Source: Dipteris shenzhenensis (taxonomy: Eukaryota). From it: a stretch of 64,000 bases of DNA. Positions 25,591-64,000 of this stretch are shown in pieces. The notes under the pieces were generated by a model. It did not search any database, was not told the DNA's origin, and saw only the letters and a program-made list of their open reading frames with translations. How positions within the stretch are numbered: the stretch's first letter is position 1; the number at the start of each line of letters is the position of its first letter. The position numbers were made by a program, and so were the translations under genes. The stretch lies in the NCBI GenBank assembly GCA_047967505.1, contig CM106538.1; one strand, given 5' to 3'.

Positions 25591-26130
25591 TCTCCCTACC
25601 CCTCTCTCTCGCTGCTGTGGCCCCTCCCCTTCTCTCTCCCCCCCTCCTCTCTCGTTGCCGCGGTAGCGGCCCCCCCCTCTCTCTCTCCCCTGCCCTCCCC
25701 TCCCTCTCCCCTCCCCTCTCTCCACTGCCGCGGCAGCGGCCTCCCTCCCCTTTCTCTCACTGCCCCCCCTTCTCTCTCTCCCCCCCCTCCTCCTCTCTCG
25801 CTGTGCCACAGCCCCCCCTCTCTCTCTCTCCCTCCCCCTCTCTCTCGTTGCCGTGCCCCCCCTTCTCTGTCTCCCCCTCCCTCCTCTCTCGCTACCGCCT
25901 CTCCCTCTCCCCTCCCCTCCCCTCCCTCCCCCCCTCTCTCCGCTGCCGCGGCAGCGGCCTCCCCCTCCCCTCTCTCTCTCCCCCCCCTCGTGGCTTCCCC
26001 CCTCTCTCCCCTCTCTTCCCCCCCCTCCCCCTTCTCTCCTCCCTCCCTTTCTCTCCCCTCTCTTTCCCCCCCCTCTCTCCTCTCTCTCCCTCTCTCTTTC
26101 TCTCTCTCTCTTTTGCTTCCGAGGCAGCAA
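23800..26130 (-). repeat. GA-rich satellite (CT-rich on +), uninterrupted copy
   Basis: Reverse complement of 5304-7100, extending about 0.5 kb further. Confidence 0.95.
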
Positions 26131-40578: not shown

Positions 40579-43500
40579 ATGGCACATCAGCCGCAACCAT
40601 CCACGCTCCAAGTGCAGTTAGATACACTTCAAGCACAGTTGGCCGATGAGCATGAGCATAGGGAGAGATTGGAAAAGAAAATCAATGGTAAGAAGAGGAA
40701 GAGACATTCATATGATGATTAGTCATCCGACAATGACACTATTATCAGGACAGTCAAAGCCACACTAAGAGCACAAAATTCGAGGAAGAAGAGTAAGATA
40801 AGTAGAAAAGCTTTCTCATTTCAAAATTTTGATGGAAAGAAAGAAGCATGCAGTGTCTTGTCTTGGATTTGTCAGCAGCTAGATGATTATTTTTCAGGGG
40901 AGAAATTCTCTAAAAAAGATAAGATTAAATGTGTTGCAAATCATTTAGTAGAGAGTGCTGCACTTTGGTGGAACATCACTAAGCACAATAAAAGGCGATC
41001 AAAATCTTGGAAGTTTTTTCAAAGGCTCATCAAGAGAGATTTCCTTCCCTCACATTTCAAAATCAAAAGCTAGACAACTATGGGATACTTTTAGGTAGTT
41101 CGATAAGCAAACAATCTCCACATATACTGATAGATTTTTGCAAATGTTGATCCAACTACAATCCTTAGAGAAAGTTAATGAGCGAGATCAACGTAGAAAG
41201 TATGTGGTAGGTCTAAAGTCTAAGTTGAGAGCCGAGATTAACATGTTTCATCCTCGCTCACTGAGCTCAGCAATTTCTCTTGCAATGAATTGTGAAAGGA
41301 AGAATGGGATCCCAAAAGAAGGGAAAGATATAGAACGGCATGTATCTTTCCATAAGAAAAAGAGATTTGATAAAAAGCCTTTTTTTAAATCTAAAAATGG
41401 TTTTTCTCCACAGAGGACAGATTCTTCTTCAAAGCCAAATGGTGGGAACTTTCCAAAGAAATAAATAAGGTGCTTCAAGTGCAACAAGGTGGGACACATA
41501 GCCACTGAGTATCTTGAAAGAAAGAAGACCTCGACAATGAAAGTGCACATGATTGACGACGAAGCAGCCAAGCAAGAGGGAGGTAAGTATAATTGTCATG
41601 CTCTTCTAAAGATGAAAGGTTTCATTAATGGCAAAGAGGTGGTTATTCTACATGATGATGGTAGTACTCATGATTTCATTTCAGAAAGAACCTTAGCAAA
41701 GCTAAACGTAGAGTTTTTCCCATCTAACTGTAAGGTCAAAGCTGCTTTTACCAAAACAAAGTACAATTGTACTAGAGAAGTCAAGAATCTTGAAATCTCA
41801 ATCAAACCTTACAAGGATACATGAGACTTTCTAGTGGCACCCCTACAGGGAGTGGACATCATCTTAGGAATGCCATGGAGGCATCAATACAATCCTAAGA
41901 TAGACTACAATTCACATCAGATGTGGATTGAGAAGGACAGACAAGAAATATGTCTAAACAGCTCAATGAAACCTGAGATCAGTCCTTTAATCAACCACAC
42001 ACAAGCCAAAAGATCAATTAGAAAACGTGAGAAGACATATCTAATTTTGGTAAATACAGTAATGATTACTCAGTCAAACACTAAGCCTATGCACCGAAAA
42101 TTTCTTTCTTAAATTTCTGATTGTTTCTTAGAGGATTTACTGCCTGGACTACCATGTTCTTGACCTGAAGATCATAGGATATAAATCATACTGGGCAATA
42201 CTCCACCTTGCAAAGCTCCTTATAGAGTCAATCAACCAGAACAAAAGGAAATTCAAAAGCAAGTGGAGGAACTAATAGAGAGAGGATTGATAAGGCCCAA
42301 TAGTTCTCCTTATGGAGCACGCGTCTTATTAGTCAAAAAGAAAAATGGAACCTACCTAATGTGCATAGACTATCATGCACTGAACAAAATCACAGTGAAG
42401 AACAAATATCCAATCCCTAGGATTGATGATCTTTTGGACAAATTGAAAATGGCCAAGGTCTTCAGTAAGATAGATCTCAAATCTAGCTATCATCAAGTTC
42501 ATATGGTAGAAGAGGATATATACAAGACTACTTTTAGAACTCAAACGGGACATTATGAGTTCCTAGTTATGCCTTTTGGGCTAACTAATGCTCTAACTAC
42601 TTTTAGTAGAATGATGAACCAAATCCTTCTTAAACACCAAGATTGTGTGGTAGTATTTTTCGATAATATTTTGGTGTTTAGCAAAGATGTTGAGGAGCAT
42701 AAAGAACATCTGAAGCTAGTCTTTTCACTCTTGAAAGAAAATCAATTGTACATAAATCTTGAAAAGAGCAATTTCTTTCAAGATCAGATAGAGTATTTGG
42801 GTCACATTGTATCCATTGATGGGATTCAAGTAGATCCAAAGAAGATTGAGTGCATAGTCACATGGCCTAAACCCCACGATATACATGAATTGAGATCATT
42901 CTTGGGATTGTGTAGCTTTTATAGAAAGTTTGTCAAGAATTTCGCATACATTGCACATCCATTGATAGGCCTTCTTAGTAAAGCTAAGCATTTCTTATGG
43001 ACTAAGCATTAAGATAAATCTTTTATAGCTTTGAAAGAAGCTCTCACACAAGCACTTGTGTTGCAACTACCCGATTTCTCTAGACCATTCTTTGTAGTTG
43101 TAACTGATGCTAGTGGATATGGAATTGGAGCTATACTTATGCAAGATGGACATTCAATAGTATATGAGAGTCGAAAATTAAAACCAAAAGAATGCAATTA
43201 TAGTACATATGATAAAGAATTAACCACTATTGTGCATGCCTTACGAATGTGGAAACATTATTTGATGGGATTTGAGTTTCTTATCAAAACCTATCAGCAA
43301 AGTATCAAGCATTTGTTGACTCAGCCACTTACATCCGATAGGCACATCAAGTAGGCATCATTTATATAGAGTTTTCAACCCTGATTCAGTATCAACCTGG
43401 AAAGGAAAATGTAGTTATTGATGCTCTTATCAGAAAGACAAGTATTAATCACATCACTGCTATAGAGACCCAAAGGAACTTTTAAAGGTATGAAGAATTC

Positions 43501-43966: not shown

Positions 43967-44756
43967 CTAAGTTGAGGGTCTTCTCTGATCCGCCTTGCCA
44001 GCCAGCAGCTGCATGTCTTTTGCCATGATCGTAACCCTCTTGGCATGGATTGCACACAAGTTTATGTCCTCAAGAAGAGTTACGATCACCACTTCTACTG
44101 CTTCTTGTATGGCAGCTAGTACGATTGATTGAATACAATAATCATCCCTGTAGGACTGCATAATCTCTTTCACCAATCGAGCGAACGGAGCTCTTGGAAT
44201 TAGAAGGTTCATGCTACTTTGATACTTTCTTATCTCTTGAAGTGCCTTCCTTTCAGGATTTCTGTGGTGTCTTCTAGGGACTCCACCTCCTCCTCCATCT
44301 CGCCTACTGTGAGCTTTGCCTTTTCCTTTTGTTGTGTGATGCAATTCTGGCAAAGATTTTCCACCCTTTCTAGAATGTGGAAAGTCCTGAGGAGCATTGT
44401 GCCATGCGGGTCATCATTGTTGGCTCTCCATTTGTGCCCTTTGTTGTTGAGCCAATTGAATTTGCATTTGTGTGGCATCTTCTTGTCCTCTGGCCCATTC
44501 TTCTAATCTGCATCTTTTGCGCTCCTGTTCTTCTGGTCTACTTTTTGGATCTTGAGGTGCCTCGGGCTGACTTTGAGGATTGGATTGCTCCCCATGATCT
44601 TCTTCATCATCATCTATTTGCTCATTGGTTTCTGTCCTCTCCTCCTTCTCCTCCTCCTCTTGCCTCCTCTTCCTTCTCTCTTCGATCATTGCATTGTATA
44701 CATCTGGAGGGATTGGGAGCTTTAACCGATCTTCCAGTTTGCTTTGTTCTTGCCAT
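43967..44756 (-). pseudogene. Divergent histone H3-like gene with a long acidic/Gln-rich N-tail insertion
   Basis: ATG at 44756 gives MARTKQTGRS. Histone fold [28 protein letters not shown]...[22 protein letters not shown]. One frameshift near 44713 and two adjacent TGA near 44411-44416. TATATATA about 100 nt upstream. Confidence 0.88.
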
Positions 44757-45297
44757 GTCGGTGATGGTGGGGCTATGGGAAATGTGACAGTAGGAAGGAA
44801 TGTACTAGTATCGGAGAGTACTGGTGGTTCTGAGAAAATGAAGGTATTTGCATATATATAGGGGTATATTTATTTTGTGCATCATTATTAGTTAGCCCCA
44901 ACCCTCTTCCCACTTTACCCCCCTTCAACCCCTCCTTCCCCCCCCCCTATTTGTCATCGTCCCCTCGGGGGTTAACCTCACAAAATTTTAGTGTACCACG
45001 TGCATTGTAAAGAAGTGATATTTATCAAAAAAATTACTTAGTTCATTAAAACATTGGGTTTTTTCATTCAACTTTAGGAAAAAATATGTAAAGAGGGGTG
45101 TTTGTTTTGGGGAAAAAAACTTATTTAAGGGGTTTTTGAAATTCCCCTTGAACTCCCGTGAGGTTACTCCCCCAACCTTTTCTCATCGCCCGCCATTGTT
45201 GGGACCACAAGTACAAAATTTAACACTTGTTTTTAAAAAAAAGAGCCAATTGATCAAATGTCCACAAGAAATATTGAAGTGCAATTTTAATTAACAT

Positions 45298-45670
45298 CAA
45301 AGTGCATTTGGTTTAGCGATCCAATGCTTTCCGACATGACTTCTGGTTGCTATCCAACTTCTATGTTTTTGGGAAGCTTGTGAAGATATCCATGAATGCC
45401 TTCTTTTACTCATTTGAGTTTGATGAACTACTTGGGCTAACTCCAGTTGCAAAGCTTTATTCCTTGCATAGGAGGACTTGACTATACCACAATAGAACCA
45501 CTTGAACATCTCATGAAGAGCATTACTTTCATTAATCCCCCTCCATGCTGCGTACTCTTGAAATAAGCACCTTTAGCTCTATAATGAGACTTTTCCATCC
45601 CTTGGGCACTCCAAGCATTCAAAGAACCATATTGGCAAAAAAACCATGGATCATGAGCATAAAGAATGTG
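45298..45670 (-). pseudogene. RAG1/Transib-like transposase, last exon
   Basis: AG acceptor at 45671, then HILYAHDPWFFCQYGSLNAWSAQGMEKSH, which resembles RAG1 [29 protein letters not shown]. Confidence 0.75.
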
Positions 45671-45712
45671 CTGCATACATAGAAAAAACACATGAGGTAA
45701 ACAAGAATAAAT

Positions 45713-48700
45713 TGTTAGATATCAATGCTCCACTCTCATGTAACTACATGGGAACCAACTAACTCTAATTGTAAGCCTCCCATATGAGGAGAAGGAATTT
45801 GAGTAGCTCAGTTATCTAGTAAGTCCTGGTTTGGACACCAGATGGGGGCCATGTGTGGCCTAATGGCTAGACAGCTTCAAATAGAGTTGGCACACTACCA
45901 ACTAGGCTACATGCAAGTGCGGGAAGGCATCCCATGACTAACCACACTGAGGGTAGATGAAGCATTTCCCGGGGCAGCCCACTCTCGGGTTGCCGGGCCC
46001 GTTTGGAGCCCAGATGATCCCAGAACGGTGACCATAGGTCAATTTCTCTAGTTTGCACATGGTTCTATCGTGTGGTCAGTGGCCTATTTCAGGACTAAAT
46101 CCCAGCCGGTTGTTTTGGGCAGACTGGGTCAGTCACCCAATTGGGTCTGACCGACTACGATTGGTGGCTATATAAGAGCAAGCCTGTGAAGCCCACCATC
46201 TATTGTATCAGTTTTACAGTAATCAAAATTTTGATTCTCCATACTATCAGCTTTTCTCTCTTGCATACGAGATCCTGTTATCTGTTGAGCAGAGATGTTG
46301 TATTGTTTTCTTACATGGTATCAGAGCTTGGGCTCTAGCAAGAAGATTTGGTAGTGTGTTTCTATTTGTGAGCAGATTGTGAGAGATGGCCCAACCCGCA
46401 AGACTACGAATCGCAACCCGCAAGACTACGAATCCCACCATTCAGCAAAAGTGGAAAGTTGGACGACACTAAATATCCACTCTGGAAGTTCAAGATTAAG
46501 ACCATCTTAAGCACATATGAGCTTTAAAATACCGCTATTAGGGTGGATGTGAAGCCGATTGTGAGACCGAATCCAACCAATGCAGGACAACAAATAGTAC
46601 CAAATGCAAATGAGATTCTTGCGTGGACAAGAAGAAATGCAGATGCGCTGTGTTCTATTGTCTACAGTGTAAGTGACTCTGTCATGGCGTTAATTCAACA
46701 TGTCAACACAGCGGAGGAAGCATGGACGGTCTTGAAAAATCAGGTCGAGGCCACAAATCAGACACGGATTCAAAATCTAGAGACTCAATTCGTGAACGAG
46801 AAACTGTTTGAGCCTGAAGCGGTAGAGAAGTTCATTACCATGGTGAAGAATCTATGCGATCAGATGACTGTGATTGGCATCACCATCACCAACGAGAATC
46901 TAGCATGAAGGTGCATACAGATTCTCCCACCAAAGTACGACGGTCTTGTTATGATGCTGAATATGCAGAACAGAAATCTGCCCCTCAACTTTGAGGATTT
47001 CAGCACGATGCTTCTGGAGGAGGAGATGCATCAAAAGACAAGGACTGGAGAAGATTCGGCTTTCTCAGCTGGATCAAAGAAAGGTAAGGGTAAGAACTCT
47101 AGTAACCCATCTTCTTTTGATGATAAAAAGAGAAAGAAGAAGATCAAGTGCTTCTATAGCAACAAGGCAGGGTAGTAAAGAAAGAGTCTAGCAACAGCGT
47201 GCAGGTAGTACCAGTAGAGCTGTTTGTAGCAATTGAGGAGATTTGCATAGAGGCAGTTCATGTACCTGCAGATGAACCTTGGATTATTGACAGTGGTGCA
47301 TCGCCACATGACCAATCAGAAGGATTGGTATACCTCTCTACATCCGGTAGGAAATGACATCCTGGTAGCAGTTGGCAATGATGCAAAATGTCCAACAAAA
47401 AGGAAAAGGTACGATTGCTCTCAAGTCAGATGGAGTTGTAAAACAGTTGTCCGATGTTCTTTATGTGCCAGATATCAAGAGGAACTTGTTTCCGTTTCTG
47501 CAATCACGGATCGGGACCTCAAAGTTCAATTCGATAAGAATGGTGCACAGATTTTGGATCGTCAAGGAAAGGTCATTGGTAAAGGTACACAGCACAACAA
47601 CATCTACGAACTCTCAACTTTCAATGCTCGAGCCGATGTGAAGAACACTAAACTGTGGCATGAGAGGTTTGGTCATCTAAACCTTAGTTCTTTAAAGGAG
47701 ATGCATAAAAGTGGAATGATTGCAAACCTACTAGAAATTATAGATCTGCCTGATGTTTGTGAAGCTTGCATGATGGGGAAGCAGCATCGACAGCCCTTTC
47801 CTAAAGAGGCTAGTAGGGCAAAGGCTCCTCTAGAGCTCGTTCACACAGACCTCTGTGAAAAGATGGAGACAGAAGCTTTGGGTGGTTCCTACTACTACAT
47901 GATGTTGATCAACGACTACAATGGAAGGATATGGATATCCTTCCTAAAGACTAAAGATCAAGCTTTTAGTAAGTTCAAAGAATGGCATGTAATGGTCGAG
48001 AAAGAAATGGGAGGAAGGTGAAGAAGTTGAGATCAGACAGAGGTGGAGAGTTCACATCAAGTGAATTCGAAAGTTACTACAAAAGTCATAGGATCAAGAG
48101 GCACAAACCCTCGCCACATACATCATAGCAAAATGGAGTAGCAGAGCACAAGATGCGCATCATCTGTGAAATGGGTAGAAGTATGATGAAAGGAAAAGAT
48201 TTGCCAAAGACTTTCTGGGCTGAAGCATGTAACACGGCAGTTTACATTCTGAATCATAGCTACACGAAGGCTGTGAATGGGATGACTCCATTGTAGGCCT
48301 TTTTTGGTAAGAAACCTTCAGCTGCACATTTTAGAGTTTTTGGATGTGACTGTTTTGTGCATGTCCCTAATGCTAACAGGACCAAATGGGAACCAAAGAG
48401 CCGGAAGTGTATTTTCTTGGGCTAGAGTGAAGAGGTGAAGGGTTACCGTGTCTATAACCCTGTTACCAAGAAGGTAATAGTAAGTCGTGATGTGGTCTTC
48501 TCAGAATAGCCACATCAATTGGAGGAGGATGCTTCCCTCACAAACAACCAGGACCAAGATATCCATCCAGTACAACCACCAACAGCAAACCGAACTCCCC
48601 CAACGGTGCTTAGGAGGATTCAAGATAAAGAAGAGGAAGAAGAGCTTGTGGAACCACAATGGCAATGCCATTCCCAAAGTGGGTAAAGCAGCTTTTGGAT

Positions 48701-51113
48701 GGCAGAGAACCTCCAGCCATTGAGAAGGAACCATCCAAACATTGCCGGTCCAAGAGATTAGAGGAGCAAAGAAGGGTGCAGGAACACTTGGTCAACTATG
48801 CTTTGATGATAGAAGTGATCCATCCTGAAGAACCCAAGTGTCCTGAAGAGGCACAAGGTGATGATAGGTGGATGGAGGCTACGCAGTCAGAGTATGGCTC
48901 CATAATGAAGAACAACACTTGGGACCTTGTGGATCGACCACCAAAATGCAAGGTAATCGGAACCAAGTGGGTGTACAAGACCAAGTAGAAGTCCGACGGC
49001 ACGTTGGATAAGTACAAGGCTTGGCTCATGGAAAAAGGATTCGCACAGGTACATGGTTTTGATTATCAGGATACTTTTTCTCCCACAGCTCGACTAATCA
49101 CAATTCACAGTGTTTTGGCTATAGCAGCACAAGAAAGTTGGCCCGTGTTTCAGATGGATGTAAAATCTTCCTTTTTGAATGGAGATCTCAAGGAGGAGGT
49201 ATACGTGGAACAACCACCAGGTTTTTTTATCTCCGGTTTAGAAGGTAAAGTTTGTAAACTGAAGAAGGCATTTTATGGGCTGAAACAGGCCCCACAAGTG
49301 TGGTACCGGCAGATTGATGCCTACTTTCTATAAAATGGGTTCAAGAGGAGCCCATTTGATGCAAATTTGTATAACTAGAGAGAAGGAGGGAGGTGTATGA
49401 TGGTGGTCCTTTATGTGGACAACCTTGTCATAATAGGAAACCATGAAGAGAAGATCTCACAGACAAAGCATTTGCTAGGAAGAGAGTTTGAAATGACAGA
49501 CCTCAGACTGCTGATGCATTTATGTTTGGGGATTGAAGTTTGGCAAGAGCCAAAACAGATCTTCATCTCACAACCGAAATATGCTAGAGAGATACTGAAG
49601 GCATTTGGCATGGCTGAGTGCAAGACAATTGGCACCCCTATGGAGGTTGATGTGAAGTGTTCGAATGAGGATTCATCACCACTGGTGGACGAAGCAAAGT
49701 ATAGAAGGCTTGTGGGCAGTTTGATTTACTTGTGCAACACACGGTCAAACATCAATTTTGCGATTGGTGTACTAAGCAGGTTTTCCAATAAGCCCCGAGA
49801 GAACCATTGGAGGGCAGGGATGCGGGTGCTGAAATACATCAAAGGCACACTTGATTATGGCATCACCTATACCAAAGGCAACATCTTGACCAGATTCTGT
49901 GACTCGGATTGGGTAGGAGACAACGAGGATAGCAGGAGATCAGTGACAGGCTACTGTTTCTCACTTGGATCTAGAGCTGTGTCATGGGTCAACAAGAAGC
50001 AACCCACATTTGCTCTTTCTTCTACCGAGGCTAAGTACAAATCAGCATGTTTTGCTTCTTGTGAGACAGTGTGGTTGAGGAGGATTTTAAGGGACATGGG
50101 TGCATTGCAAAACAAGCCTACGTAGTATCATGTGACAATCAGAGTTGCATGGCAATTGCAAAGAACCCTGTGTTCCATGCTCGCACAAAACACATTGAGA
50201 TTCAATATCACTTTGTACGCGAGCTCATCATGGATGGAGAGCTCGACTTTGTGTACTGTTCGACTATAGAGAATGCTACCGACATTTTCACGAAGGCTCT
50301 TGGAAGAGACTTGCTGGAGAGGCATCTTCATCGACTTGGCATTGGGCCAAAAAAGTAAGTTCACTTGTGAGTGGACATTGAGGGGGGGTGTTAGATATCA
50401 ATGCTCCACTCTCGTGTAACTACATGGGAACCAGCTAACTCTACTTGTAAGCCCCCCATATGAGAAGGCATTTGAGTAGCTCGGTTATCCGATAGGTCCT
50501 GGGTTTGGACACCAGATGGGGGCCATGTGTGGTCTGATGGCTGGACGGCTTCAGATAAAGTTGGCACACTACCACCTAGGCTACATGCAAGTGCAAGAAG
50601 GCATCCCATGACTGACTGCACTGAGGGTAGACGGAGCATTTCTCAGGGCAGCCCACTCTTGGGTTGCAGGGCTCATTTGGAGCGCCAGATGTGATCCCAG
50701 ATGGCTCTGGTCCGAACGATGACCATAGGTTAGTTGCTCTATTTTGCACCACGGTTCTATCATGTGGTCGGTGGCCTATTTTAGGACCGACCCCCAGTTG
50801 ACCATTTTGGGCAAAACGGTAACCCAATTGGGTCTAACCGACTACGACTGGTGGCTATATAAGAGCAAGCCTATGAAGCCCATTATTATCACTGGCTATA
50901 ACAACCCTATTTCTTTAGCATCCAGCCTCCGTCCTCTACTGTTTCCAACATGCCATCGATGCTTCTCTCACAGGAGTGCACGGCTGGGAGGCAGTGCCAT
51001 CTATTGTATCACTTTTACAGTAATCAAATTTTTGATTCTCCATACTATCAGTTTTTCTCTCTTGCATACGAGATCCTATTATCTGTTGAGCACAGACATA
51101 TTGTTTTCTTACA
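45713..51113 (+). mobile_element. Full-length decayed Ty1/copia element with two LTRs and TSD TAAAT
   Basis: 5' LTR 45713-46315, PBS TGGTATCAGAGC 46316-46327, gag-PR-INT-RT-RH remnants about 46386-50358, PPT before the 3' LTR 50389-51113. TAAAT at 45708-45712 and 51114-51118. Confidence 0.97.
46386..50358 (+). pseudogene. Copia gag-pol with many stops and frameshifts
   Basis: WIIDSGA, WHERFGHLN, CEACMMGKQ, LELVHTDLC, QMDVKSSFLNG, FCDSDWVG, RTKHIEIQYHF. Confidence 0.95.
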
Positions 51114-51160
51114 TAAATTGATGCAATTAAAATTTTAAAAATAGCAAAGACCAAACACAC

Positions 51161-52082
51161 CATGTAGTGAGTAATGTGTGATTCACCCCATCCATCTACT
51201 ACCATGGCTTCAATGAACTCATTCACGATGACTTTATATAGTTGCACATCATCATCGTCTATGGAAGGCTTCCTCAAGATCTTTACCAAAGTATCCAATT
51301 CTTTCCAAACACGTATTCTGAAGGTTCTGACATGAGGATCAGCTTCCAAATTAGTCGTGCAATCACATAACTTTTTCCAATAATTCCAATGCAAATTTAA
51401 TCGATGTTTTCCATGATTGGATAAAAACCTTTGTGCCTTAGAGCCTCCCATGGACACTTTATTTGGAAGATTTCCTAAATTTCCTGACAATTGTGTGTCT
51501 TTGATTAGCTTTACATTCCCCCCATGTAGACCCATGCTCAAGAGTAAAGCTTCAACCCTTGTTGCTATACATGATGCTGCTCTCTCCTCCGATTTCATGT
51601 TCCATGCATATACAATGTGCAAGTAAAGCAATTTATCAATGAGTCGCATCTCCACATGTAACACACAGAAATGCACTCTTTGTAATGGAATGTTTAAAAT
51701 TGGATCCCAATTTTTATCATTATGATCTCTGTTGGGTGAAGCATCCTGATTGCAGCTCATTACTCCATTGCTCCAATACATCCATTTGTTAGCCTCATCA
51801 TCTGTGATGTCATTCATTACATCTTTAGCATTCCCCAAAGTCTTTTCCTCTTTTTACTTGCTCTTTCCCTTTATGTATTCCTATGTTACTACCTTAAGTT
51901 TGGTGTGAGTGCATACAAACATTTGCATTTGCATGCAATTCCATTCCAAACGTACACTTCAATGCCTTAAGATCTCCTGCCATGTGCCATTCAACTTTAA
52001 ATGATCCAAACCCATCAACTTGAAGCAACTCTCCTTTTGTTTGCGCATCTATGACACTTGGAATTGGAGATCTATCAAATAA
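51161..52082 (-). pseudogene. RAG1/Transib-like transposase, central exon(s)
   Basis: FDRSPIP...WHMAGDLKALKC, WDPILNIPLQRVHFCVLHVEMRL and WGESHITHYM, followed by a GT donor at 51160. Confidence 0.75.
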
Positions 52083-52476
52083 TATTAGCCGGAAAAGAAA
52101 TCAGGACCAGAGGCTAGAGGCTAAGCATGGCGAAGCTTGAGGGCCATAGAGAAAAGGAGATCGTGAGGGCGAACCATTGTCATGGGAGGGGAAAAGGAAT
52201 TAGGATTGGAAGGAAGGAAGAGGGAGACTATGACACAAGGGGAAAAGGAGAGGGGGAAGAGAAGCATGTACATGATAGGAGGAGGAATGTAGAGATGGAG
52301 ACATCAAGGGAAGAGAACCATACTTTATTTGAAAGAAAGGATGAGAGGGAAATATCAAAATACTAGCTAGGTGGCTTTACAAGAATGAGCGTGTCTCATC
52401 AAAGAATAGCCCCCTCCTTTTATAGCCAAAAGAGGGGGTCTCTCCCAATTAATTTATCCTCCCACATGCATGGTGT

Positions 52477-55257
52477 TGTTGAGATATCGAGCTCCACTCG
52501 CGATATGCCAGGGTGACTGTTGTGCATTTATGTCACCGACTTGTTAGCTGGAGATGCGGTTGGTACACCGTCCACGATGACAGCTATCCTTATCTACTCT
52601 AGTTTGTGGCTCAGTTAGTATGCCACCTTAGTTAGTTGAGTTTGGTTTGAGACCCACATATAGGGTTCTATTTTCTTTGTACTAGAGTTCTTTTGGCTTT
52701 CACAACTAAGAAGAGGAAAATTGTTTTCAGCCTCCACCTTTGTGTGTATTCCCCCAATTGTTCATGTGAGAAAGCCACAAGTGAGACTCCTTCCCTCTCT
52801 CCCACTATCTTCACATGGTGTCAGAGCCTTGTTCGTGATAAGGAGCTCAAGAAAGCAAGCCAAGTTCGTGGTGTCCTGGTAAGAGGACCAGTGTTGCTTT
52901 CCTATTTCGAGTTTGGGAGCAAATCTCTGCAAGTAGCACAACTAGAAGTGCAAGAGTGCACTGTCTCAGATTGAGACGCCCTTCACGGTGTGGCAAGAGT
53001 GCAGTATATGCTGCGGGACAAGGCGAAGCCCTCGGTGACGTTATTTTTCTGATTCGAGGTCATTTCGGGGCCCGTTTTGGGGACGAAAGTTCGCCGCAGG
53101 CACTCAGAAAAAGGCCATGTTTTTGCTGTGCGACCACTGTTCTGCGAGTCGGTGAAAAGTTGCCTCAGAAATTGCATCATATGCCTTTGTGCAGAGATAT
53201 TGGGAGCTGCAGATTCATGCTTGTTGCCTGTTGATGCAAAATCGTCACTAGGAAGTGACTGTGTGGTGAAATACCACTTTCGTCAGTTTTGCAGTTCTGC
53301 CCATGTGAGGCAAAAGCTGTGTTTTTTGCAGTGACAGAATATTTTGCAGTGTTCTATAATGGCATCTGATTCTCTTTTCACAGATTGTCACTGAAAAGCT
53401 TGACAAGAACAACTTCCAGGCATGGAAGTTTAGAATGACGAATTTCTTGATGGGAAAAGGCTATTGGGAGTTCATTACAGGAAATGAAGAAGAACCTGTT
53501 CTTCCTAATGTTCTCAGTCAACAGGAAATGCAGGCATTCAAAGGATGGCATGAGAGAGCCAGGAAAGTTATGTACTGGCTGTCTATTAGTATTTCGGACT
53601 CCATGATTGTGCATATTCAGGATGCAAGTATGCCAAAGGAGGCATGGGATACTTTGGCAAAAATGTACAGCACAAATACGCAAGCCAGGAAAATGCAGCT
53701 CAAGCAGGAGCTACACATGTGCAGAGAGAAAACATGAGCATCAATGACTACCACATGAAGGTGAAGAAAATTGCGGATGCACTTGCTTCCATTGGGTCGC
53801 CAGTGGATGATGAGGATTTGGTTTCTGTGACCTTGAATGGTCTAGGAAAGGATTATGCACAATTCCGGACATCCATTGCCGTCCATGAAAAATTTCCAGA
53901 TTTTGAGGAGTTGATTGCTCTTCTAATTTCTGAAGAGCAGAGAAATGGGGGTGCATTTTCTTCAGCAGGAACTTCAAAAGAAACTATCTTCTACTCAAAC
54001 GCTGGCAGAGGTAGAGGCAGAGGTAGAGGAGGCCAATTTGCAGGCCGTGGTAGAAATCAGAATATGCAGCAAACGCAAGAAAACCAGTCCTATGCAGGAG
54101 GACGTGGTAACTCTAGAGGCAGTGGGAGCCAAAGAGGCCGTGGTGGATGGCAGAGAGGCCAAAATGCAAACAGCAATGTTGAATGCTACTATTGTGGCAA
54201 AATGGGTCATATGGCTAAGGACTGCTATAAAAATCAGAATGACATTATGACTAGAAAATTGCAGCAAGGCAATTATGCATCTTCTAGTAGGCAGGGTGAT
54301 GACAGAAATGAGCATCTATTTATGGTGCAGCATATGACCAATTATGTGACAAGTGCAGAAGAATGAAATGATGTGTGGTATGTTGACTCAGGTGCGTCAA
54401 ACCACATGATAGGTCATGCAGAATGGATGCAAGATGTAAGGAAAATGGAAAAACCAGGATTTGTGGAGATTGGTGATGATACTGCACATCCTATTGTGCA
54501 GATTGGCAAAATTCCTTTGTCTATGCAGGATGGGAAAAAGAAATACTTGTCTGATGTATTTCATGTCCCGAAATCACCAAGAACCTAGTTTCTGTTGGTC
54601 AGATGGTTGAGCAGGGCTTGCAGGTCAGATTTAATCCTCATGGATGCTTTGTTGAGGATATGAAAAATAATGGTCGCTTGATAGCAAAAGGAAAGAAGAA
54701 GGGCAGGATGTTTACGTTGGATGTGGACATGCCTGAATTGAGTGCAGCAATGTTTGCACATGGGACCGGTGTAGTTGCAGATATTGATATCTGGCACAAA
54801 CACATTGGTCATGTTAATATACAACGACTTAAATCAATGCAAGCCCAAAATATTGTTGCAGGATTGCCTAAATTCAAGGTTGTAGAAATGCACAAGGTTT
54901 GTGAAGCTTGTCAATTTGGGAAACAGGCAAGGAAACCTTTTCCTAGGCATGTTCAAGAGAGTAAAAAGCCATTGGAATTAATCCACTCTGATGTGTGGAC
55001 TACTAAAGCTGCATCTATTGGTGGCTGTCACTATTTTGTCACATTTATTGATGACTTCAGCAGAAAACTTTGGGTGTATTTTTTGAAAAATAAAAGTGAA
55101 GTGTTTGGGCACTTCAAAGCTTTCAAAGCTATGGTTGAAAAAGAAACAGGCTTGCAAATAAAATGCCTAAGGTCAGATGGAGGGGGAGAGTACCTCTCAA
55201 ATGAGTTTGTAAGGTTCTTGCAGGAGCATGGTATAAAGCAGCAATATTCATGCAGTC
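52477..55257 (+). mobile_element. Ty1/copia 5' half (LTR 52477-52815, PBS 52816-52827, gag-PR-INT from 53359), same family as 1-1236/5006-5303
   Basis: TGTTGAGATATC...TCACA, TGGTGTCAGAGC, LDKNNFQAWKF, CYYCGKMGH, WYVDSGASNHM, LELIHSDVW, LRSDGGGEY. Breaks off near 55255. Confidence 0.95.
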
Positions 55258-58200
55258 ATAAAATCTATGCCCCACTTCTGAAACGGATGGATGGACATCA
55301 CTGGGTGATGTTGCCCAGGATGCAAATCCTTCCTACCAAAGAATTGGCATGGTTCACAGGTTTTGCAATACAAAGTGACATCCTTGAACAAGGTTGGCCA
55401 ATAGTATCCAGCATGTAAAATCTTCTTAGCTATATAGTCACTGGCATAGTGGCCTCCACAAAATCCATCATGATAATGCTTCAATACCTTAGGCACTTCA
55501 TCTGCATCAATGGCCCATCTTAGTACCCCATCCATGCCTTGATGGTACAACACCCCATCAAGGAGGGTGTAGCGCCTACTATCTCTGCGGATCTTCTTTC
55601 TCTCATAGCTAGTACTTTCTGAAGGAAAGGAGAAAGCAGTCAGAAACTTGTAGATACCACCATACCATGGATCCCCAACTTCTATGGCTGCTACAAGGGT
55701 TACATCAAGGCACTCCTCTAAATCAATCAAAGCATTCTTCAAGTTGGAACAACCCCCTTTTACAATTTTGAAAGAAAAATCATATTCTTGTAGAACTGCT
55801 AACCATTTGGCCAACCGGCCCATGGGATTTGGTGATTGAAGCACCTGCTTTGCAAGACCAATGCTAGTGAGTATAAAGGACTTTCCAGCCACATAATGCT
55901 TAAATTTCTCAATGCAAAACACCAAAGACAAGGCATGCTTGTCAGCCTCTGAATAGCGTCGCTCAGTGTCGAGCAATTATCGAGAAGCAAATCGAATGGG
56001 ATACATGAACCGATCCTCCCCTTGCTGGAGAAGAATACCTGCCAGAGTGTGCTCACCAAACCCAAGATTGATATAGAAAGTCTTTGACCAATCTGGATTG
56101 CATAGAATGGGTTCTAAACCAGAGCATTCTTGATTTGTGCAAACGCATGATCACAATCCTCATCCCAAGAGAAATCAACCCCATCTTTTAATAGCACAGT
56201 CATGGGTCATGTCAAAGCAGCATATTGATCAATGAAGCGGCGATAGTATCCTACTAGATTGACAAATGAGCGTACCTAACGTTTGGTTGTAGGCAGGGAG
56301 AGCTTGAGGATGGCTTCTACCTTCTCGGCTTGATGCCCTCGGATGAGACAATATGTCCCAATAACCTCCCTTGAGTGGCTTCAATGGTGCATTTCTTAGG
56401 GTTGAGACTGCCATTTGCATCATTGACCCTTTGGAAGGCCAATCTAACCTTCATGACGTGCTCCTTACGTGACGAGAATATACAAAAATCATCTAAAAAC
56501 ACCTCCAAGAAATCTCCCAAATAAGGAGCAAACACCATCTACATAAATCTTTGAAAGGTAGCAGGAGCATTGGTGAGGCCAAATGGCATTACTTTGAATG
56601 CAAATGTCCCCCAGGGTGTGGCAAATGTGGTTTTAAGCACATCTTCTTCAGCAATTCTGATTTGATAAAACCCAGAGTAACCATCATAGAAAGTATACAT
56701 CTCATGACCACTTACCTTCTCAAGAATGAGGTCTTGAAAGGGCAGAGGATGATGATCCCTCTTGGTGGTGGCATTGAGTTTCTTATAGTCGATGTAGACC
56801 CGCCACTTGTTGTTTTTCTTTGGGGTGACTACCACTGGTGAAACCCATTCAGTATTGTGAACCGGAACAATAAACCCAATTTCTACAAGCTTCTGCAACT
56901 CTGAGCGCAAAGCATCAGTCTGCAAGGGCCCTAATCTCTGATACTTCTGAGCCACAGGCTTTGCATCAGGCTTCAGCTCTATCTTGTGCTCTATGGCAGT
57001 CACATGGCAAAGGTGGTGGTAGCTAGTTGCAAAGAGGTTAGGGAAATCTTTGAACATTTCTAGGAACTCATCTTTCTCACTTAGAGTGAGGTCTAGGGAA
57101 AGCATAGATTCAAGCTGTTGAGGACTAGCTATTATCTTTTCTGCAGGTGGCAGGGTTGGAGACACCCCCATCATGTAAACTTCCTCCTCTGAGAATTCCT
57201 CCCCCCCGTCTGATTCTTCCATGGACTCTGACACCGAGGATGAGAGAGTATCACTATCTTGCTCCTCTTCTTCTTCCGGTTCCATGGCACTAGGTTGCAC
57301 CGGGATCTTCTCCTTGGAAGCACCAAAAGACATGTGTCTTGTCTTCCAATAGCTGACTGCATCACTCTTTCTTAACCATGGTCTCCCAAGTATGGCTGGG
57401 TAACTTCTGCCTGTATCTTCAATGTCCACTACATAGAAATTGACAGTGGTGGTCAACCCATTGACAGTGATGGGCAAATCCTCAATGACTCCCAGGGTGG
57501 CGAGTCATCGACCATCTGCTACCTTGATTCGAGTGGAGGAACGCCTTGTACATTTCAAATTCAATTTCTTCATGATTTGGGGCACCATGATATTACATGC
57601 AGCTCCCCCATCAACACGCACATTTTTGACACGGCAATTATCTATGATGACATCTACTGTATGTGGGTGCCGATCAATTTCTTCAGAGATAGAAGATACC
57701 TCTCGTACCTTTCCCTTTTTCTTGCTCTTCCTTGTTGAGAGACCTTGCTACAGCTCACGTGTCACCTTAGGGCTTAATGCTATTAGTTGAGGGAGCGTGA
57801 TGCTCAAAGACCGATGAGCAAGGTCCTGAACGACTGAATAGTCTTCTTACCCTGAGCCGATGGGAAAATCCGAGGGTGACCACTTACTCCTACGAGATCT
57901 TTTAGTCTTCTCTATTGGTGGGTCTGCCATCTCAGCATCTGAGGGCTTTGAGAAGGACACCTTCTTCCTGGGGCGGCCCGGTCCATGGTTTGGAGAGGAG
58001 TCCGAGGTGGCACGACTTCTTTTCCTGAGGTCAAGGATCTCTACATCAGAATCCTCAGTGCCCGACTCACTTAGAAGATTCACCCTTGGAATATTGGGGC
58101 ATTCTGTGCGATAATGACCCTTCTGGTGGCACTCGTAGCATACAACATTAGCACGGTCTCTTGGAGGGCGGTTGGCTTGATTTCTGATGCCCACCATCTC

Positions 58201-59035
58201 AAGCCGAAGATCTCATTCAAGGCCTTGGCTAGGTCATTGACTCCAGGTTCTGTTGCAAGGGGGGCCTCTTTAGCTAGAGGGGCCGTGGGAGTAGAGAGGA
58301 GGGGGGCTCGTGGGTGAGGTTGGGGAAATCTTCGAGGCGGAGGGTGAGGATATACACCTTGTTGAGGGTAAGCATCTAAGGGAGGACCATACATTTGAGG
58401 TGGAGGTGGTGGATACATCCCTAATGAGGGGTGGGGGTATGGCCCTGAGTTAGACCCCCCAGGTTGTTGTTGCAGGAATTGAGGGGGTTGCGAAGAAATA
58501 ATCGTCTTCTTTGAAGCGGGGTCAGAGACTGAACTTTATCAAACTTTTGAGCAATCTCATGTGCTAGCACCATAGTTTCTAGATTCTCCTATTTAAGCTT
58601 GAGGTGGAATTCATCACTTGCTCCTGCTACAAGGTAGCCCAGCACATGTTGAGTCATTCCAGCTCAAAATCCAGCATTGTCCTCCTGTGTGGCAATCAAA
58701 CGGTCCAGGAGCACGGCCGCTTGATCCACATATCGACGTGCCGTCTCACCTTCTGACTGCTTCAAGTTTGCCACCTACAGGTACACATTCTTCGGCTCCT
58801 CTTCTTTGCCGAAATACTCAATCATCGCTACTGTCAACCTTGGCCAGCTTTGGCGAACGTCTTCGGCCTGCTTCCCATACCACACTTGAGCCAAACCCTC
58901 TAGAAATGTGGGAAGAACCAACAGCCATCTGTCTTCAGTAAGAAAGTTGAGAGAAACACAACGGCGCTTGAAGGCCACAAGATACTCATTTGGATTTTCT
59001 TCCACCCATCCACAAAACACGGGAATGTCAGCCAT
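55258..59035 (-). pseudogene. Gypsy gag-pol (gag, knuckle, protease, RT, RNase H, integrase N-term)
   Basis: FLEGLAQVWY, CYECHQKGHYRTEC, VDGGAACNI, DGYSGFYQI, VFLDDFCIFS, GRLAKW, HDGFCGGHY...CEPCQ, PFQKWGIDF. Confidence 0.93.
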
Positions 59036-59609
59036 GCTTGGAAGATGGAAAAGAGAGGCTTATCTATGGACAAACAATAGAAAGAGGAAGCTTGAACTGA
59101 AAATCGGGTGAAGATATATCCACAAAGCACACATAGGCAGGGTAGGGTGTGACTGGTGTAGTGTGAAATACTACACAGGAAGAATCTTCAGCATAGAATA
59201 GCACATAGACAATCTTAAAAGGACCAACCCTCATGATATCACATCCATCTTTGCAAACGAGGGTTAGAGGCATGGCGTTGCATGAGGTTGTTCATCAAGG
59301 CAAACAAGAATGCCATGACAAATGTCAACAGTTGGAGAGCTTGCACATCACCTTCAGCTTCTTCCAGTTCTTGTAGTCGCCATGCTATTTCTTCAAGGGG
59401 TGTGCGGTCTGGCATCCTTCTTTTGAGCAATGTCCTTGAGGACCTTTCTGATGATCTTCCGAAGTCGGTGAACTCGTATCAAGTATGTCCAACACTTAGT
59501 TTCATGATGACCACAACCTTTACATTCCTTACAAATGATCACCCTCCTTCATGGCTTGCAGCTTTGTTGGGGTGGTGCTTCCACTCGCATCATGCGTGAT
59601 TGAAGTACA

Positions 59610-59993
59610 AGTTTCACGTGCCAAGAAATCAGCAACTAGATTTTGAGCTCGAGGGATATGCTGAATTTTTACCTCTTCAAATTGCTTGCAAAGTTCCAAT
59701 GCTTGTTGATGTCATGGAACCAAGCCTTTGCTCCGCACCTTCCACCTTCCACTAACTTGTTCACAAACTAGTTGAGAATCTCCTTGCACTTCAAGTTGCT
59801 TGGCATGATGTTCTTGTGCCTTTTGTAGCCCAAAAATGAGCGCCGAGTACTCAGCTTGATTGCAAGTATTTGCAGGTGCAGACTTACTATAACAATACTC
59901 CTCACCATCTGGTGAAGTGAGCTTCACACCCATGCCAGCAGTCTTGGTCGAAGGTTTATAAGCTCCATCAAATTGAAGGATCCAAGATGTCAT
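59610..59993 (-). pseudogene. Stand-alone archaeal-type RNase HI (aRH) ORF upstream of gag
   Basis: WILQFDGA, TCNQAEYSALIFGL, VQGDSQLVCEQVSG, then past one TGA at 59712 HIPRAQNLVADFLAR. Confidence 0.88.
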
Positions 59994-60010
59994 CACACCA
60001 AGACTAAAAT

Positions 60011-60605
60011 TCAGACATCCCAAGTTTCTCGGTAGTCCAGGGGAGAATTCAACACTTGAGCCAAACGTTCAGCACCAAATAAACTTGCAATCCTTTGTTG
60101 ATAGTTTATCTTAAGACCAAAAAGAATTACAACTTGAAGCTCGAAATGAGGCACAAAAGGTTGATTAGGTACAAATGGATTCCTTGGTCGAAACATTACC
60201 AACCATAGCTGAGGCCTAGAAACCTTTGTAGTGAGATTGAGAATAAACCATTCAAGACGAGCTTATCCATAGGAATCAACAAGCAGATGCGCCAAATCTC
60301 CCCCAAGATTGGGGAGCATCCCACGCTTCGATGAAGGACACTGTTTTAATTACCTCTAAAGCAGCAAGTAGTTCGATCACTGCACAATGAGTAGAAGTAA
60401 AATCAAAGTTCTCCCAGCGTATCAGTAGTTCTTTACCATGAATCATCCACAGTGTATCATTCCACCCATCATCTCCTTGAACAATGCACTGGAAAATCAA
60501 CCGTTGAAGGTCGACATGAAGATCAAGGACGAGATCTTGTGCATTGGTAGCTGTAAGGTGCGGAGGACCAGGCACCAAATCCTTAAACACGTCGAGAAGT
60601 GACAT
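60011..60605 (-). other. Additional unknown ORF remnants in the gypsy 5' region
   Basis: Sense-strand ORFs 60276-60605 and 60011-60202 with no recognisable motif. Confidence 0.35.
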
Positions 60606-60931
60606 AAATGTCCACCTCCTCGTGTGGCATGCATCCGTGAAGTGAACTTAAAGAAGTTCTGAATTGGTGATCTAGCAGGAGATGTGAATAGAGCACATGA
60701 AATGAAGTACTTTTGCTTAAATTTACAGCAAGAGCAAACTCCCCATGGTTAGAGAGTTACAGTTGCCGAGATTTCAATATATAAACAAAAATCATTACAT
60801 TTTTACCACTTCCAACTTGTTGGCCCAATGATAAGTCTCCCTTTTGTGAAGGGGGAGGTCTTGGGTTCAAATCCTACTCTTTAATAAAAAGAGAGGAGAG
60901 GAGAGGAGAAGGAGAAGAGAAAGAGAAGGAG

Positions 60932-61417
60932 AAGAAGAGAAGAGAAGAGAGAGGGGGGCACGGGATCTACTGTTACAGTTTTGCAGGAACTCAGAAAACT
61001 GTCCGCGACCAGAAGATGCAGCAGCCGAGAAAACTATCGCACGGTCAAACACAGTAGATGCGCGAATCGAATGCGTGCGCAGTAGCTTAGAAGGAGCACA
61101 GATGGTACAGTTTTGCAGATGCGACCGGTTCGAGTAGAAGATTCACCACTAGCCGTGGAGATTTCGATCCCAGAAGAGAAGAGAAGAGAAGAGAGAGGGG
61201 GGCGCGGGATCTGCTGTTACAGTTTTGCAGGAACTCAAAAAACTGTCCGCGACCAGAAGACGCAGCAGCCCAGAAAATGATCGCATGGTCAAACACAATA
61301 GATGCGCGAATCAAATGCACGCGCAGTAGCTTAGAAGGAGCACAGATGGTACAGTTTTGCAAATGCGACCGGTTTGAGTAGAAGATTCACCACTAGCCAT
61401 GGAGATTTCGATCCCAG
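60932..61417. repeat. Tandem duplication of about 243 bp in the gypsy 5' UTR
   Basis: agagaagagagagggggg...gagatttcgatcccag twice. Confidence 0.92.
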
Positions 61418-61428
61418 CAACCACACCA
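61411..61428 (-). promoter_or_regulatory. Primer binding site, probably tRNA-His
   Basis: + strand reads ATCCCAGCAACCACACCA next to the LTR. As I recall, plant tRNA-His ends ATCCCAGCAGCCACA-CCA. Confidence 0.65.
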
Positions 61429-62418
61429 GTTCTATTAGCTGGAAAAGAAATCAGGACCAGAGGCTAGAGGCTAAGCATGGCGATGCTCGAGGGCCATAGA
61501 GAAAAGGAGATCGTGAGAGCGAACCATTGTCATGGGAGGGGAAAAGGAATTAGAAGTGGAAGGAAGGAAGAGGGAGACTATGACACAAGGGGAAAAGGAG
61601 AGGGGGAAGAGAAGCATGTACATGATAGGAGGAGGAATGTAGAGATGGAGACATCAAGGGAAGAGAACCATACTTTATTTGAAAGAAAGGATGAGAGGGA
61701 AATATCAAAATACTAGCTAGGTGGCTTTACAAGAATGAGTGTGTCTCATCAAAGAATAGCCCCCTCCTTTTATAGCCAAAAGAGGGGGTCTCTCCCAATT
61801 AATGTATCCTCCCACATGCATGGTGTGTGTGGAAAAGTCTCCCATGGGGACTAGGTGGTTACGCACTCTCAATTGTGTGCGACAACGCTTTGCCTCAATT
61901 TTCCACATAAATCAAGCCCCATACCTCAAGTCTATGATACTCCCTTGGTCTCTTCCCAATTTTATAATATGTTCAAACCTCTAGGGGGATAAGTGGAGGG
62001 TTGGCACAAGGAATCTTGCCACCTCATACTACTTTCCCCATTATTTAACTTGCTCTCTTGGACCTTCTATACCTCCCCCACATGGGCCTATCCCATATGG
62101 AGGGAATAATATAATATCCATTTCCACCTATTTTATATTACTTCTCCCATGGACTTTGAGCCATATCTCACTAAATGCAGCCTAGGTGGAGGGGTGGCAC
62201 ATGGAGGAACCATGCCACCTTACATTTTATAATATTACTATCATGGATTATGTACAACACACCTTATGGGTCCTCTTACATGGAAGGGTGGCACATGGTC
62301 ATGCCCTGCCACCTCAACCTTGGGCCCTATGCACACCATATTTTATTATACTATTGCCACATATACAAACACACACATATATTAATGCCTTTTTCCTTAG
62401 ACAATTTTATCCATAACA

Positions 62419-62631
62419 ATACCCATTTCAATAATGAGTGTGTCTCTTTAGGAAGTTCAAATGCAGCAAGCCACCAAATGTGCTTTTTCGATTGCACACT
62501 AAAATCTTCCCTAATTTCCTTATCTTTGGCATGTACGAGGGCTTTATTCATCAAAGCAATACTAACCCTCTCTAATTTTACAACCTCTCACTCATCCAAT
62601 TTGATAACGAATACTAACTTTCCTTCACAAT
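62419..62631 (-). pseudogene. RAG1/Transib-like transposase, upstream exon with first catalytic Asp
   Basis: AG acceptor near 62632, then CEGKLVFVIKLDE*...LERVSIALMNKAL...FSVQSKKHIWWLAAFELPKETHSLLKWV, which joins in frame to 52082. Confidence 0.7.
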
Positions 62632-62803
62632 CTGAAAGATTAAAAGATTTACATGATTAGAAAAGATTTCAATAAAAATTTGAGCTCTCTAAACAATATA
62701 ATTTTAACATATCCCATGCTTTCATGTTATAAAACTCCACCATTGTAGCTTGGACCCTACATACATCCAAAAAAACATTATTATGCCACAACAAGACAAA
62801 GAA

Positions 62804-64000
62804 CCCATAGACGCGCACACGAACGCATTTGCTGAACTAAATAAAAAAACTTACGGGCGCATCTATTTGTGCATCTATTAGTGCATCTGGAGACCCGCGT
62901 CTAACAGTGCGTCTATATAGGACACACACATGCGTATAGACATGCATATAAACGCTAAAATAGATGCTCTTATAAATGCGTTTGTAGATGCAAAAATAGA
63001 TGCTTGTCGATAGATAGACGTGTATATAGATGTGTTTATAGACGCACTGATAGACGCGCTTTATAATATTTTTTTTAAATTTACAGAATGCTGTGTATGT
63101 TGTGTATGCTATATAGTTACAAGAATCCCATTTCGACATTGTGTAATTCAATTCTTATAGCCAACCGCATTTTAATTACAATTTCAAATAAAACATTACA
63201 AGTCCAAAATGCAATAAAATTGAAAGCTCAAAAAGTGCTTGTATGTACATATAGCATGAAGGTAAGCCACGTCATGTGGCTTCAAGTACAAAAAATAAGA
63301 GGAGTGTGTATACAAGAGGCACGAAGCCAAGCCAATGGCTTTAAGTACAAAAAAGAGTAGCTAGCACTACTTCTACAACTAATCCTCGCTCCCTTCCATG
63401 CTCCCTTCCACGCTCCCTTCTATGCTCCCTTCTGCGCCTCCTTTCTCGTCTTCCTCATCATCTTGTGCACGGGCCTGTAAACAAGGGACAACATATATCA
63501 ATGTATGAAAAATCAAATCTTTACTTATAATATTGGCATTATTTAATTACTTTCAAATACCTCGGGGGCCGCTCCAGTAGCCCAGATATATTGCTCCTCA
63601 GTAATCAACCCATCATCAGAGAAGTTCCTCCATGTATCTCCTCTGCGATGGTGGCAGTGGTAGGCTGTGTCCATAGGAGTAGGGTATCTGCCCACGATCT
63701 CAAGTTGCAAGATGACACAATTTGCAGAGGGATTAGTACAAAAAAACAACCTCCTAATAAACTACATAAGCAATATAATTTGAGATTGATACTTACAAAT
63801 TAGGCCTCCCATGATTTAACACCCTCTGCTCCAAAATGTGCACTTCCATATTCCTCCATCTGGATCCTTCGTGCCTCCACGTGCTGCAGATTGGTGTCCT
63901 CCCTCGCTGACTTCATTGCTTTCTTCCACTCACTGCTTGTGAGCGATGTGGGGCGGGCCCCTTGGTGGTTGACCTCCCTCGATCCTTGCAAGCTCCGCTA
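62804..64000 (-). mobile_element. Probable end of another En/Spm-like DNA transposon (CCCATAGAC terminus, subterminal repeats, TnpA-like exons)
   Basis: Repeated ATAGACGC/ATAGATGC/GCATCTAT at 62804-63060. Spliced minus-strand exons HFGAEGVKSW...LEIVGRYPTP. Confidence 0.5.

Follow-up and report, generated by a model that had tools for sequence, protein, structure and literature searches.

A probable DNA transposon relic in Dipteris shenzhenensis combining a divergent transposase of RAG1/Transib architecture with a histone H3-like gene

What kind of gene lies buried under the retroelements on the minus strand of a 64,000-nt stretch of Dipteris shenzhenensis DNA (hereafter the window, to whose positions all coordinates refer), and does it belong among the relatives of RAG1? 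RAG1 puts antibody genes together; its ancestry is traced to transposases of the Transib type, and these have been described chiefly from animals. An initial annotation, made from the letters of the window, had proposed an intron-containing plant member of the RAG/Transib/Chapaev-related group, hidden under three long terminal repeat (LTR) insertions. Based on the analysis reported here, positions 43,970-62,800 (minus strand) likely represent a decayed, 5'-truncated cut-and-paste DNA transposon that encoded a divergent transposase of RAG1/Transib architecture together with its own histone H3-like gene, the copy in the window being inactive. Its transposase is part of a divergent and so far unnamed family of eukaryotic transposases, with a DDE core of the RNase H-like kind that is interrupted between the second Asp and the Glu by a large helical insertion, and with a C-terminal domain. 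Plant-type members of this family carry a zinc-type motif, C(2)C...H(4)H. The element bears the H3-like gene downstream of the transposase gene on the same strand, a position and orientation conserved in three loci.

Reading along the minus strand, the most upstream recognisable transposase exon fragment (62,725-62,800; ..HNNVFLDVCRVQATMVEFYNM) was recovered by tblastn with three relatives (P0155, P0002, and P0018). It is followed by the exon with the first catalytic Asp (62,420-62,633; VIKLDE, with the Asp at 62,596-62,594) and by the exon part with the second (51,897-52,079; AGDLK, with the Asp at 51,974-51,972), both residues being assigned from their columns in the family alignment. A central open exon of 231 codons (51,161-51,853), for which 138 relatives were detected, extends from IPLQRVHFCVLH to GESHITHYM and ends at a GT splice donor. 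The last exon (45,297-45,673) carries HILYAH, representing the H(4)H pair, and 20 residues further on SAQGME with the Glu at 45,595-45,593, before terminating at the stop codon 45,299-45,297. This exon aligns to residues 557-600 of P0155 as well as to P0098, P0140, P0141, P0142, and P0076, and its C-terminal tail is collinear with two metagenome loci, L011 and L001. Every motif named by the initial annotation lies on this strand, either where it had been placed or a few bases off: VIKLD (62,608-62,594), KWV (62,428-62,420), FDR (52,079-52,071), AGDLK (51,980-51,966), CVLH (51,667-51,656), THYM (51,172-51,161), HILYAH (45,670-45,653), and SAQGME (45,610-45,593). The proposal that a single minus-strand gene emerges once the insertions are removed was likewise borne out, with relatives aligning straight across both joins.

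At the first of these joins, KWV|FDR, relative P0002 is unbroken: its residues 137-250 match 62,782-62,417 and residues 250-334 match 52,079-51,843 (tblastn). P0155 spans the same point at residues 266-268, again without a break. Since relatives run uninterrupted over KWV|FDR, the 10.3 kb in between (52,080-62,419) are located within coding sequence and not in an intron, in line with the gypsy join suggested before. The interruptions consist of LTR-retrotransposon sequence, and the count of three LTR insertions was roughly right, although the large block is not one simple element but a composite insertion. Its 398-bp direct repeats (52,083-52,479 and 61,433-61,830, 97.7% identical) enclose a minus-strand gypsy-type pol at 55.2-60.1 kb (RVT_1, RT_RNaseH, Integrase_H2C2, RVT_3). 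On the plus strand, the block further contains a copia-type gag/integrase fragment (53.4-55.4 kb); its final 589 bp (61,831-62,419) have no second copy within the window, and its target duplication is ambiguous (a 4-nt TATT overlap).

The second join is a GT..AG intron in phase 0 (CACTACATG|gtgtgt ... tgtatgcag|CACATT). A copia-type LTR retrotransposon on the plus strand (45,713-51,113; Pfam RVT_2 and gag_pre-integrs) resides inside it; without this element the intron measures about 81 nt, close to the 85 nt predicted for a phase-0 THYM|HILYAH junction. The copia has two LTRs (45,713-46,316 and 50,389-51,114, 84-92% identity) and is bounded by TG and CA, and a perfect 5-bp duplication, ATTTA, is found at 45,708-45,712 and 51,114-51,118. 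This intron is not peculiar to the window. Locus L011 has an in-frame intron at the same position (running V...MQ), and the read-through sequence HYMV(S/R) in P0001, P0002, P0015, and P0046 implies this position, too.

The transposase gene in the window is a dead pseudogene lacking its N-terminal third. Right after VIKLDE, an in-frame TGA (62,590-62,588) stands at a site that is occupied by Cys, Ser, Thr, or Met in relatives; a 3-residue deletion lies beside it. Of the C(2)C site after AGDLK one Cys is left, followed by a stop (..CMHSHQT) and a frame change before the next part; a 1-nt frameshift is located in a G run near 45,530 (..STQHGGG / INESNALHEMFKWFY..). For the N-terminal ~190 residues of the full-length relatives, no counterpart was found upstream of 62,800 in the window (tblastn with P0155, P0002, and P0018). 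The copy is inactive, with these stops and frame breaks, the degraded C(2)C site, the 10.3-kb retroelement block within an exon, the copia within an intron, the loss of the N-terminal third, and no preserved ends. The D/D/H(4)H-20-E part of the layout is kept (VIKLD, AGDLK, HILYAH-20-SAQGME).

The relic is cut short on both sides, as the N-terminal part is absent upstream and a high-copy gypsy-type element follows downstream. This fourth retroelement (42,185-43,351, plus strand) encodes a gypsy-type reverse transcriptase (RVT_1, E 9e-35) and RNase H, reaches a contig depth in the thousands in two DNA runs, and forms the downstream boundary of the relic. Just upstream of the relic, minus-strand open reading frame (ORF) pieces at 63,382-63,761 end in an acidic tail (..DDEEDEKGGAEGSIEGSVEGSMEGSED, then a stop) and match no Pfam family; these pieces look like the 3' terminus of a gene unrelated to the relic, and the ORFs of 63,380-64,000 are in another reading frame. 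In the DNA contigs of the two runs, which are short and mostly <95% alike, neither further copies nor element ends were found. In two RNA runs, all matching reads were partial and loose-ended; they fell on the histone fold (44,006-44,058), where they probably originate from another H3 gene, and on the retroelement (42.5-42.7 kb).

To which family does the reconstructed gene belong? Searched against 1.84 billion representative proteins, the 231-residue exon has 138 relatives at E≤1e-3, eight of them at E≤1e-30, and judged by these sequence matches the exon family is more than a chance resemblance. Most of the relatives are fragments ending at the HYM intron. Identity to the window exon amounts to 66% for P0001, 37% for the metagenome loci L001, L005, and L011, and 29% for P0098. 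Full-length members fall into two groups. An intronless type (P0098, P0076, P0110, P0131, and P0140-P0142) is devoid of the Cys and His residues of the zinc site. A plant-like type possesses them and comprises P0002, P0150, and the loci L001 (with P0155, a 699-residue ORF), L005, and L011. Relatives of this plant type share the layout D...D-C(2)C...H...H(4)H-20-E, the residues in P0155 being D207, D304, C324/C327, H557/H562, and E581. Counting the alignment rows (A4) that cover each column, the first Asp is conserved in 18 of 20 and the second in 43 of 48, the C(2)C cysteines in 38/52 and 41/56, and the residues of an H-x-C-x-x-H motif in 85/95 (H), 84/97 (C), and 93/101 (H) rows; the Glu is found in 18 of 25 rows, post-intron columns such as this one being diluted by read-through fragments. 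A word-index protein search for longer relatives returned none, and a scan of viral contigs with the family alignment detected no relative. In L011, two kilobases downstream of the apparently intact plant-type transposase gene, tandem units of ~89-95 bp with CGAACGACGCGATATAGGCGCC and inverted copies were noticed (5030-5400 and 5960-6088); a 423-residue ORF on the opposite strand (3819-5090), without a Pfam family, lies between this gene and the tandem units.

In order to place the family, the relative P0098 was modeled with AlphaFold2 from a 139-row family alignment, giving a mean predicted local distance difference test score of 80.2 and a predicted template modeling score of 0.75. A Foldseek search of the PDB with this model delivered RAG1, amphioxus RAGL, or HzTransib for all listed matches through rank 49 (best E 1.9e-11), with Hermes appearing only at rank 50 (E 5.1e-4). 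A search of 48,161 chains independent of Foldseek produced the same order of matches. In structural comparison the RAG1 core scored 21.0 (388 aligned residues, root-mean-square deviation 4.3, model residues 73-514 on RAG1 550-1008), followed by HzTransib (18.9), BbRAGL (18.8), the P element transposase (13.0), and Hermes and ISCth4 (about 7-8). The model displays the architecture of RAG1, i.e., a pre-RNase H region, an RNase H-like DDE core, a helical insertion corresponding to ZnC2/ZnH2, and a C-terminal domain. By simple offset, its D118, D208, and E465 come within a few residues of what we take to be the RAG1 catalytic positions. The structure search recommended at the outset, performed here on a relative that is 29% identical to the window exon, thus led to RAG1/Transib, and neither to an unrelated fold nor to a well-known plant superfamily.

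Further indications come from motif layout and from a protein language model. The CACTA-Mirage-Chapaev-Transib (CMCT) clade shares D, D, C(2)C, H(3-4)H, and E, according to Kojima 2025 (PMC12730594), where HHpred is reported to tie at least ESTA to RAG1. The family studied here shows this trait: C(2)C follows the second Asp, and H(3-4)H precedes the Glu. Among the nearest clusters listed, the named language-model neighbours of P0141 and P0155 were RAG1 domain families with scores of 0.94-0.95. These neighbours share 175-195 of 256 features and include an arthropod PF26100 cluster carrying RAG1_RNase_H; one further neighbour row has DUF1280 on 16% of its members. No CACTA family occurred among the listed neighbours of these two proteins. 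We regard this neighbourhood as a lead, not a proof. The predicted fold places the family in the CMCT clade, with the RAG1/Transib members as its nearest solved relatives. The assignment to the RAG/Transib/Chapaev-related group made by the initial annotation is therefore backed by the fold of P0098 and by the motif layout, while a link to RAG1 Pfam or PDB sequences by HMMER is absent. This support reaches to kinship with RAG1/Transib at the level of the group and does not extend to Transib proper.

The second component of the element is encoded directly downstream. The H3-like companion gene (43,970-44,756, minus strand) starts with MARTKQTGRSVKAP at 44,756, on the same strand and roughly 540 bp beyond the stop codon of the transposase gene. 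It begins with MARTKQTGRS, continues with a charged linker that is broken by stops or frame changes, and closes with an open histone-fold ORF (44,410-43,970) containing IMAKDM. The gene thus presents both an H3-type histone fold and the N-terminal tail start of H3. In L001 and L005, the transposase is likewise followed at once, on the same strand, by ORFs with 44% identity (tblastn E 1e-17 and 2e-15), which begin with MVRIKECANR and MGRVKQCAKR, respectively. All three match the Pfam Histone family (E 2.2e-30 for the window, 5.6e-26 for L001, and 7.3e-34 for L005), and the L005 protein finds its best PDB sequence matches among chains of the H3 and CENP-A type (E 3e-28). Canonical H3 reads LLIRKLPFQR and PKDI at places where the three element-borne proteins have LLIP(R/K)APF(A/S)R in common and two of them AKDM; L001 and L005 additionally exhibit a long loop 1. 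The variant in the window keeps the ARTKQ/K4 tail start but is without the ARKS context of K9. As the transposases of the paired loci are only ~37% identical to the window exon, the pairing of transposase and histone is old. Beyond the H3-like gene, L001 (3077-3238) and L005 (2713-2856) hold a third, short conserved ORF start, MVR(R/V)K(I/K)TP(R/T)R.., where the contigs break off; a further gene of the element may begin here, with a start somewhat similar to an H3 tail.

Several observations weigh against this interpretation. At the level of sequence searching, no Pfam family, RAG1 domain models included, was matched at E≤1-10 by five window pieces or nine relatives, and no PDB chain, RAG1 and Transib included, was hit at E≤10 by phmmer with P0098 or by a 23-row profile (A3). 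The folded protein is P0098, a relative with 29% identity to the window exon from the subgroup without C(2)C and H(4)H, and not the window protein itself. For CACTA, Chapaev, Mirage, Plavaka, ESTA, and Lanisha, no transposase is known to have a solved structure; consequently, only RAG1/Transib structures represent the clade, and RAG1 as the best PDB match does not discriminate between Transib and the other lineages (PMC12730594). Transib elements create a 5-bp target-site duplication and have terminal inverted repeats opening with a CAC heptamer-like sequence. A comparison of the two flanks of the relic in the window (62.6-64.0 kb against 36.0-45.3 kb) revealed no inverted repeats, the best inverted matches being 12-13 nt long at E 0.16 or worse, and none were found in the metagenome loci L011, L003, L004, L006, L007, and L008. 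For the element as a whole, neither terminal inverted repeats nor a target-site duplication came to light in the window or in the 15 metagenome loci. With regard to the histone, at least 600 nt past the transposase match were available in five of the 15 metagenome loci. Two of these five (L001 and L005), and two of all 15 fetched loci, contain the H3-like gene, which was not found in L011, L004, and L015 despite at least 600 nt downstream in each. Moreover, the H3-like copy of L001 has an in-frame stop.

Weighed against these points, which other explanations come into consideration? The one that survives best concerns the name and not the mechanism. It is possible, though we consider it doubtful, that the family corresponds to Lanisha, an already named plant superfamily. 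Lanisha is a cut-and-paste lineage that was reported as new from the moss Ceratodon purpureus (Carey et al. 2021; PMC8245031), with a deposited element in GenBank (MT647524), and has been assigned to the CMCT clade as "showing similarity to EnSpm" in PMC12730594. Besides EnSpm it is the only plant-derived CMCT lineage named there, it has the same C(2)C and H(3-4)H, and the intron-bearing plant-type copy of L011 on an environmental contig would fit it as well. However, whereas Lanisha is said to resemble EnSpm, the family studied here has no EnSpm-type Pfam match (E≤1-10), a comparison made with Lanisha by description; and its nearest listed language-model neighbours are RAG1 families.

Closely related is the idea of a divergent CMC transposase (EnSpm/CACTA, Chapaev, or Mirage type) outside the Transib/RAG1-side lineage, which we regard as unlikely. 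CACTA elements are common CMCT-clade members in plants, and the PDB contains no CMC structure that could out-compete RAG1 in a fold search. The residues D, D, C(2)C, H(3-4)H, and E are, moreover, common to all CMCT lineages (PMC12730594). Against this stands the absence of any match to the plant CACTA models (Transposase_21/Tnp2 and DUF4218) for five window pieces and nine relatives at E≤1-10, and also the H(4)H of the family followed by GP, as in the Transib sequences printed in PMC9435367. The listed language-model neighbours are RAG1/Transib clusters and not CACTA. CACTA itself is spaced H(3)H.

For the companion gene, a chance neighbour such as a host H3 variant pseudogene would be the simplest alternative, and the limitation of the pairing to two of 15 fetched loci, the degraded linker of the window copy, and the absence of preserved element ends enclosing the H3-like gene can be read in its favor. 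Yet order, strand, and close spacing are alike in three loci whose transposases are ~37% identical, and all three copies share departures from canonical H3, with LLIP(R/K)APF(A/S)R in each, so that mere adjacency appears quite improbable to us. Least convincing is a domesticated host pair in place of a mobile element: an intron position conserved in the window, L011, and several fragments, and a last-exon contig depth on a par with low-copy DNA nearby and much lower than over the retroelements would agree with it, but stops, frame breaks, and retroelement insertions in the coding sequence indicate that the gene is not under selection here, and the relatives are numerous, diverse, and mostly fragmentary, the H3-like copy of L001 having a stop.

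Returning to a decayed cut-and-paste transposon with its own histone gene as the preferred interpretation, the activity of an intact element can be sketched by analogy. A dimeric enzyme would bind the transposon ends, nick them, and form hairpins on the flanking DNA, as do RAG1, Transib, and hAT enzymes; the excised element would then be integrated elsewhere. The histone variant could act on the chromatin of the element itself or on targeting. We tentatively favor a role in the element's own chromatin: the variant may mark the nucleosomes of the element or protect them from silencing, or it may steer the transposase. Going one step further, and only tentatively, a deep-branching RAG1/Transib-like lineage might long have moved together with its own H3 variant as a working partner, in land plants (with introns) as well as in microbial eukaryotes. 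If the histone were indeed such a partner, it would provide a transposon-borne counterpart to V(D)J recombination, where the PHD finger of RAG2 is linked to the tail of H3.

Comparison with known systems delineates what is particular about this element. Relative to RAG1, RAGL, and Transib (mouse RAG1 core 4wwx; BbRAGL 6b40; HzTransib 6pqn and 6pqx; Kapitonov & Jurka 2005, PMC1131882), identity in structural alignments is ~13-16%. In contrast to RAG1/Transib, the window family occurs in plants with introns, an H3-like companion stands where those systems have a RAG2-like partner or no partner, and a subgroup of the P0098 type does without the zinc residues. RAG1/Transib relatives have been claimed in plant assemblies before, as "Transib-like proteins in plants (39)" (Tao et al. 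2022; PMC9435367), the printed examples (Capsicum, Hordeum, Corrigiola, Arabis, and others) lying on contigs of 2.8-4.5 kb. These printed examples are canonical Transib (KWGCDGSSG, MIDGK..C..C, HK.LIHG..SEEA.ES.NK), and the sequence family of the window differs from them. By eye, our family and the Transib proteins in the supplement of that paper can be matched motif by motif: LHAxIRxxExxLH against LHAFVRIVEKIVH, GNTARRFF against GGAKARKFL, and HKLLIHGP...SEEAxES against HILKVHGP...STQGMERS. A degenerate pattern of the KWGCDGSSG type gave eight chance matches in short ORFs of genome contigs and none in viral contigs.

Regarding the histone cargo, the hAT element of Pyrenophora tritici-repentis is likewise a DNA transposon with an H3-like gene (PMC3538342, PMC6710886). 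It belongs to the hAT superfamily and, as described there, amplified a captured housekeeping gene, as opposed to an old partnership with a RAG1-like enzyme. Literature searches, which were made without Repbase Reports and many subscription journals, turned up no paper describing a histone gene on a transposon of the RAG1/Transib type, the closest case being this fungal hAT element. A conserved H3-like gene would be an unusual cargo for a DNA transposon and points to a connection between chromatin and a RAG1-like enzyme that can be put to the test. With this family, the reach of the RAG1/Transib kind widens to plants as long-standing residents, equipped with spliceosomal introns and lying under old retroelement insertions, and a set of unnamed "hypothetical proteins" gains a place. 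The window copy itself is a dead relic of no functional weight.

Apart from the relic, the window comprises conspicuous repeat arrays. An interstitial TAGGGTT array of ~119 copies (27,459-28,295), which we take to be a plant telomere-type repeat, adjoins a CCCACT-type array (26,447-27,315). G/A-rich arrays (GAGAGGGGGGG..GCTGCCGCGGCAGC) at 5327-7009 have their C/T-rich complement at 23,851-26,106, so that the satellite blocks at 5.3-7.0 and 23.9-26.1 kb constitute an inverted low-complexity pair of extreme skew (GC 0.71, GC skew -0.71).

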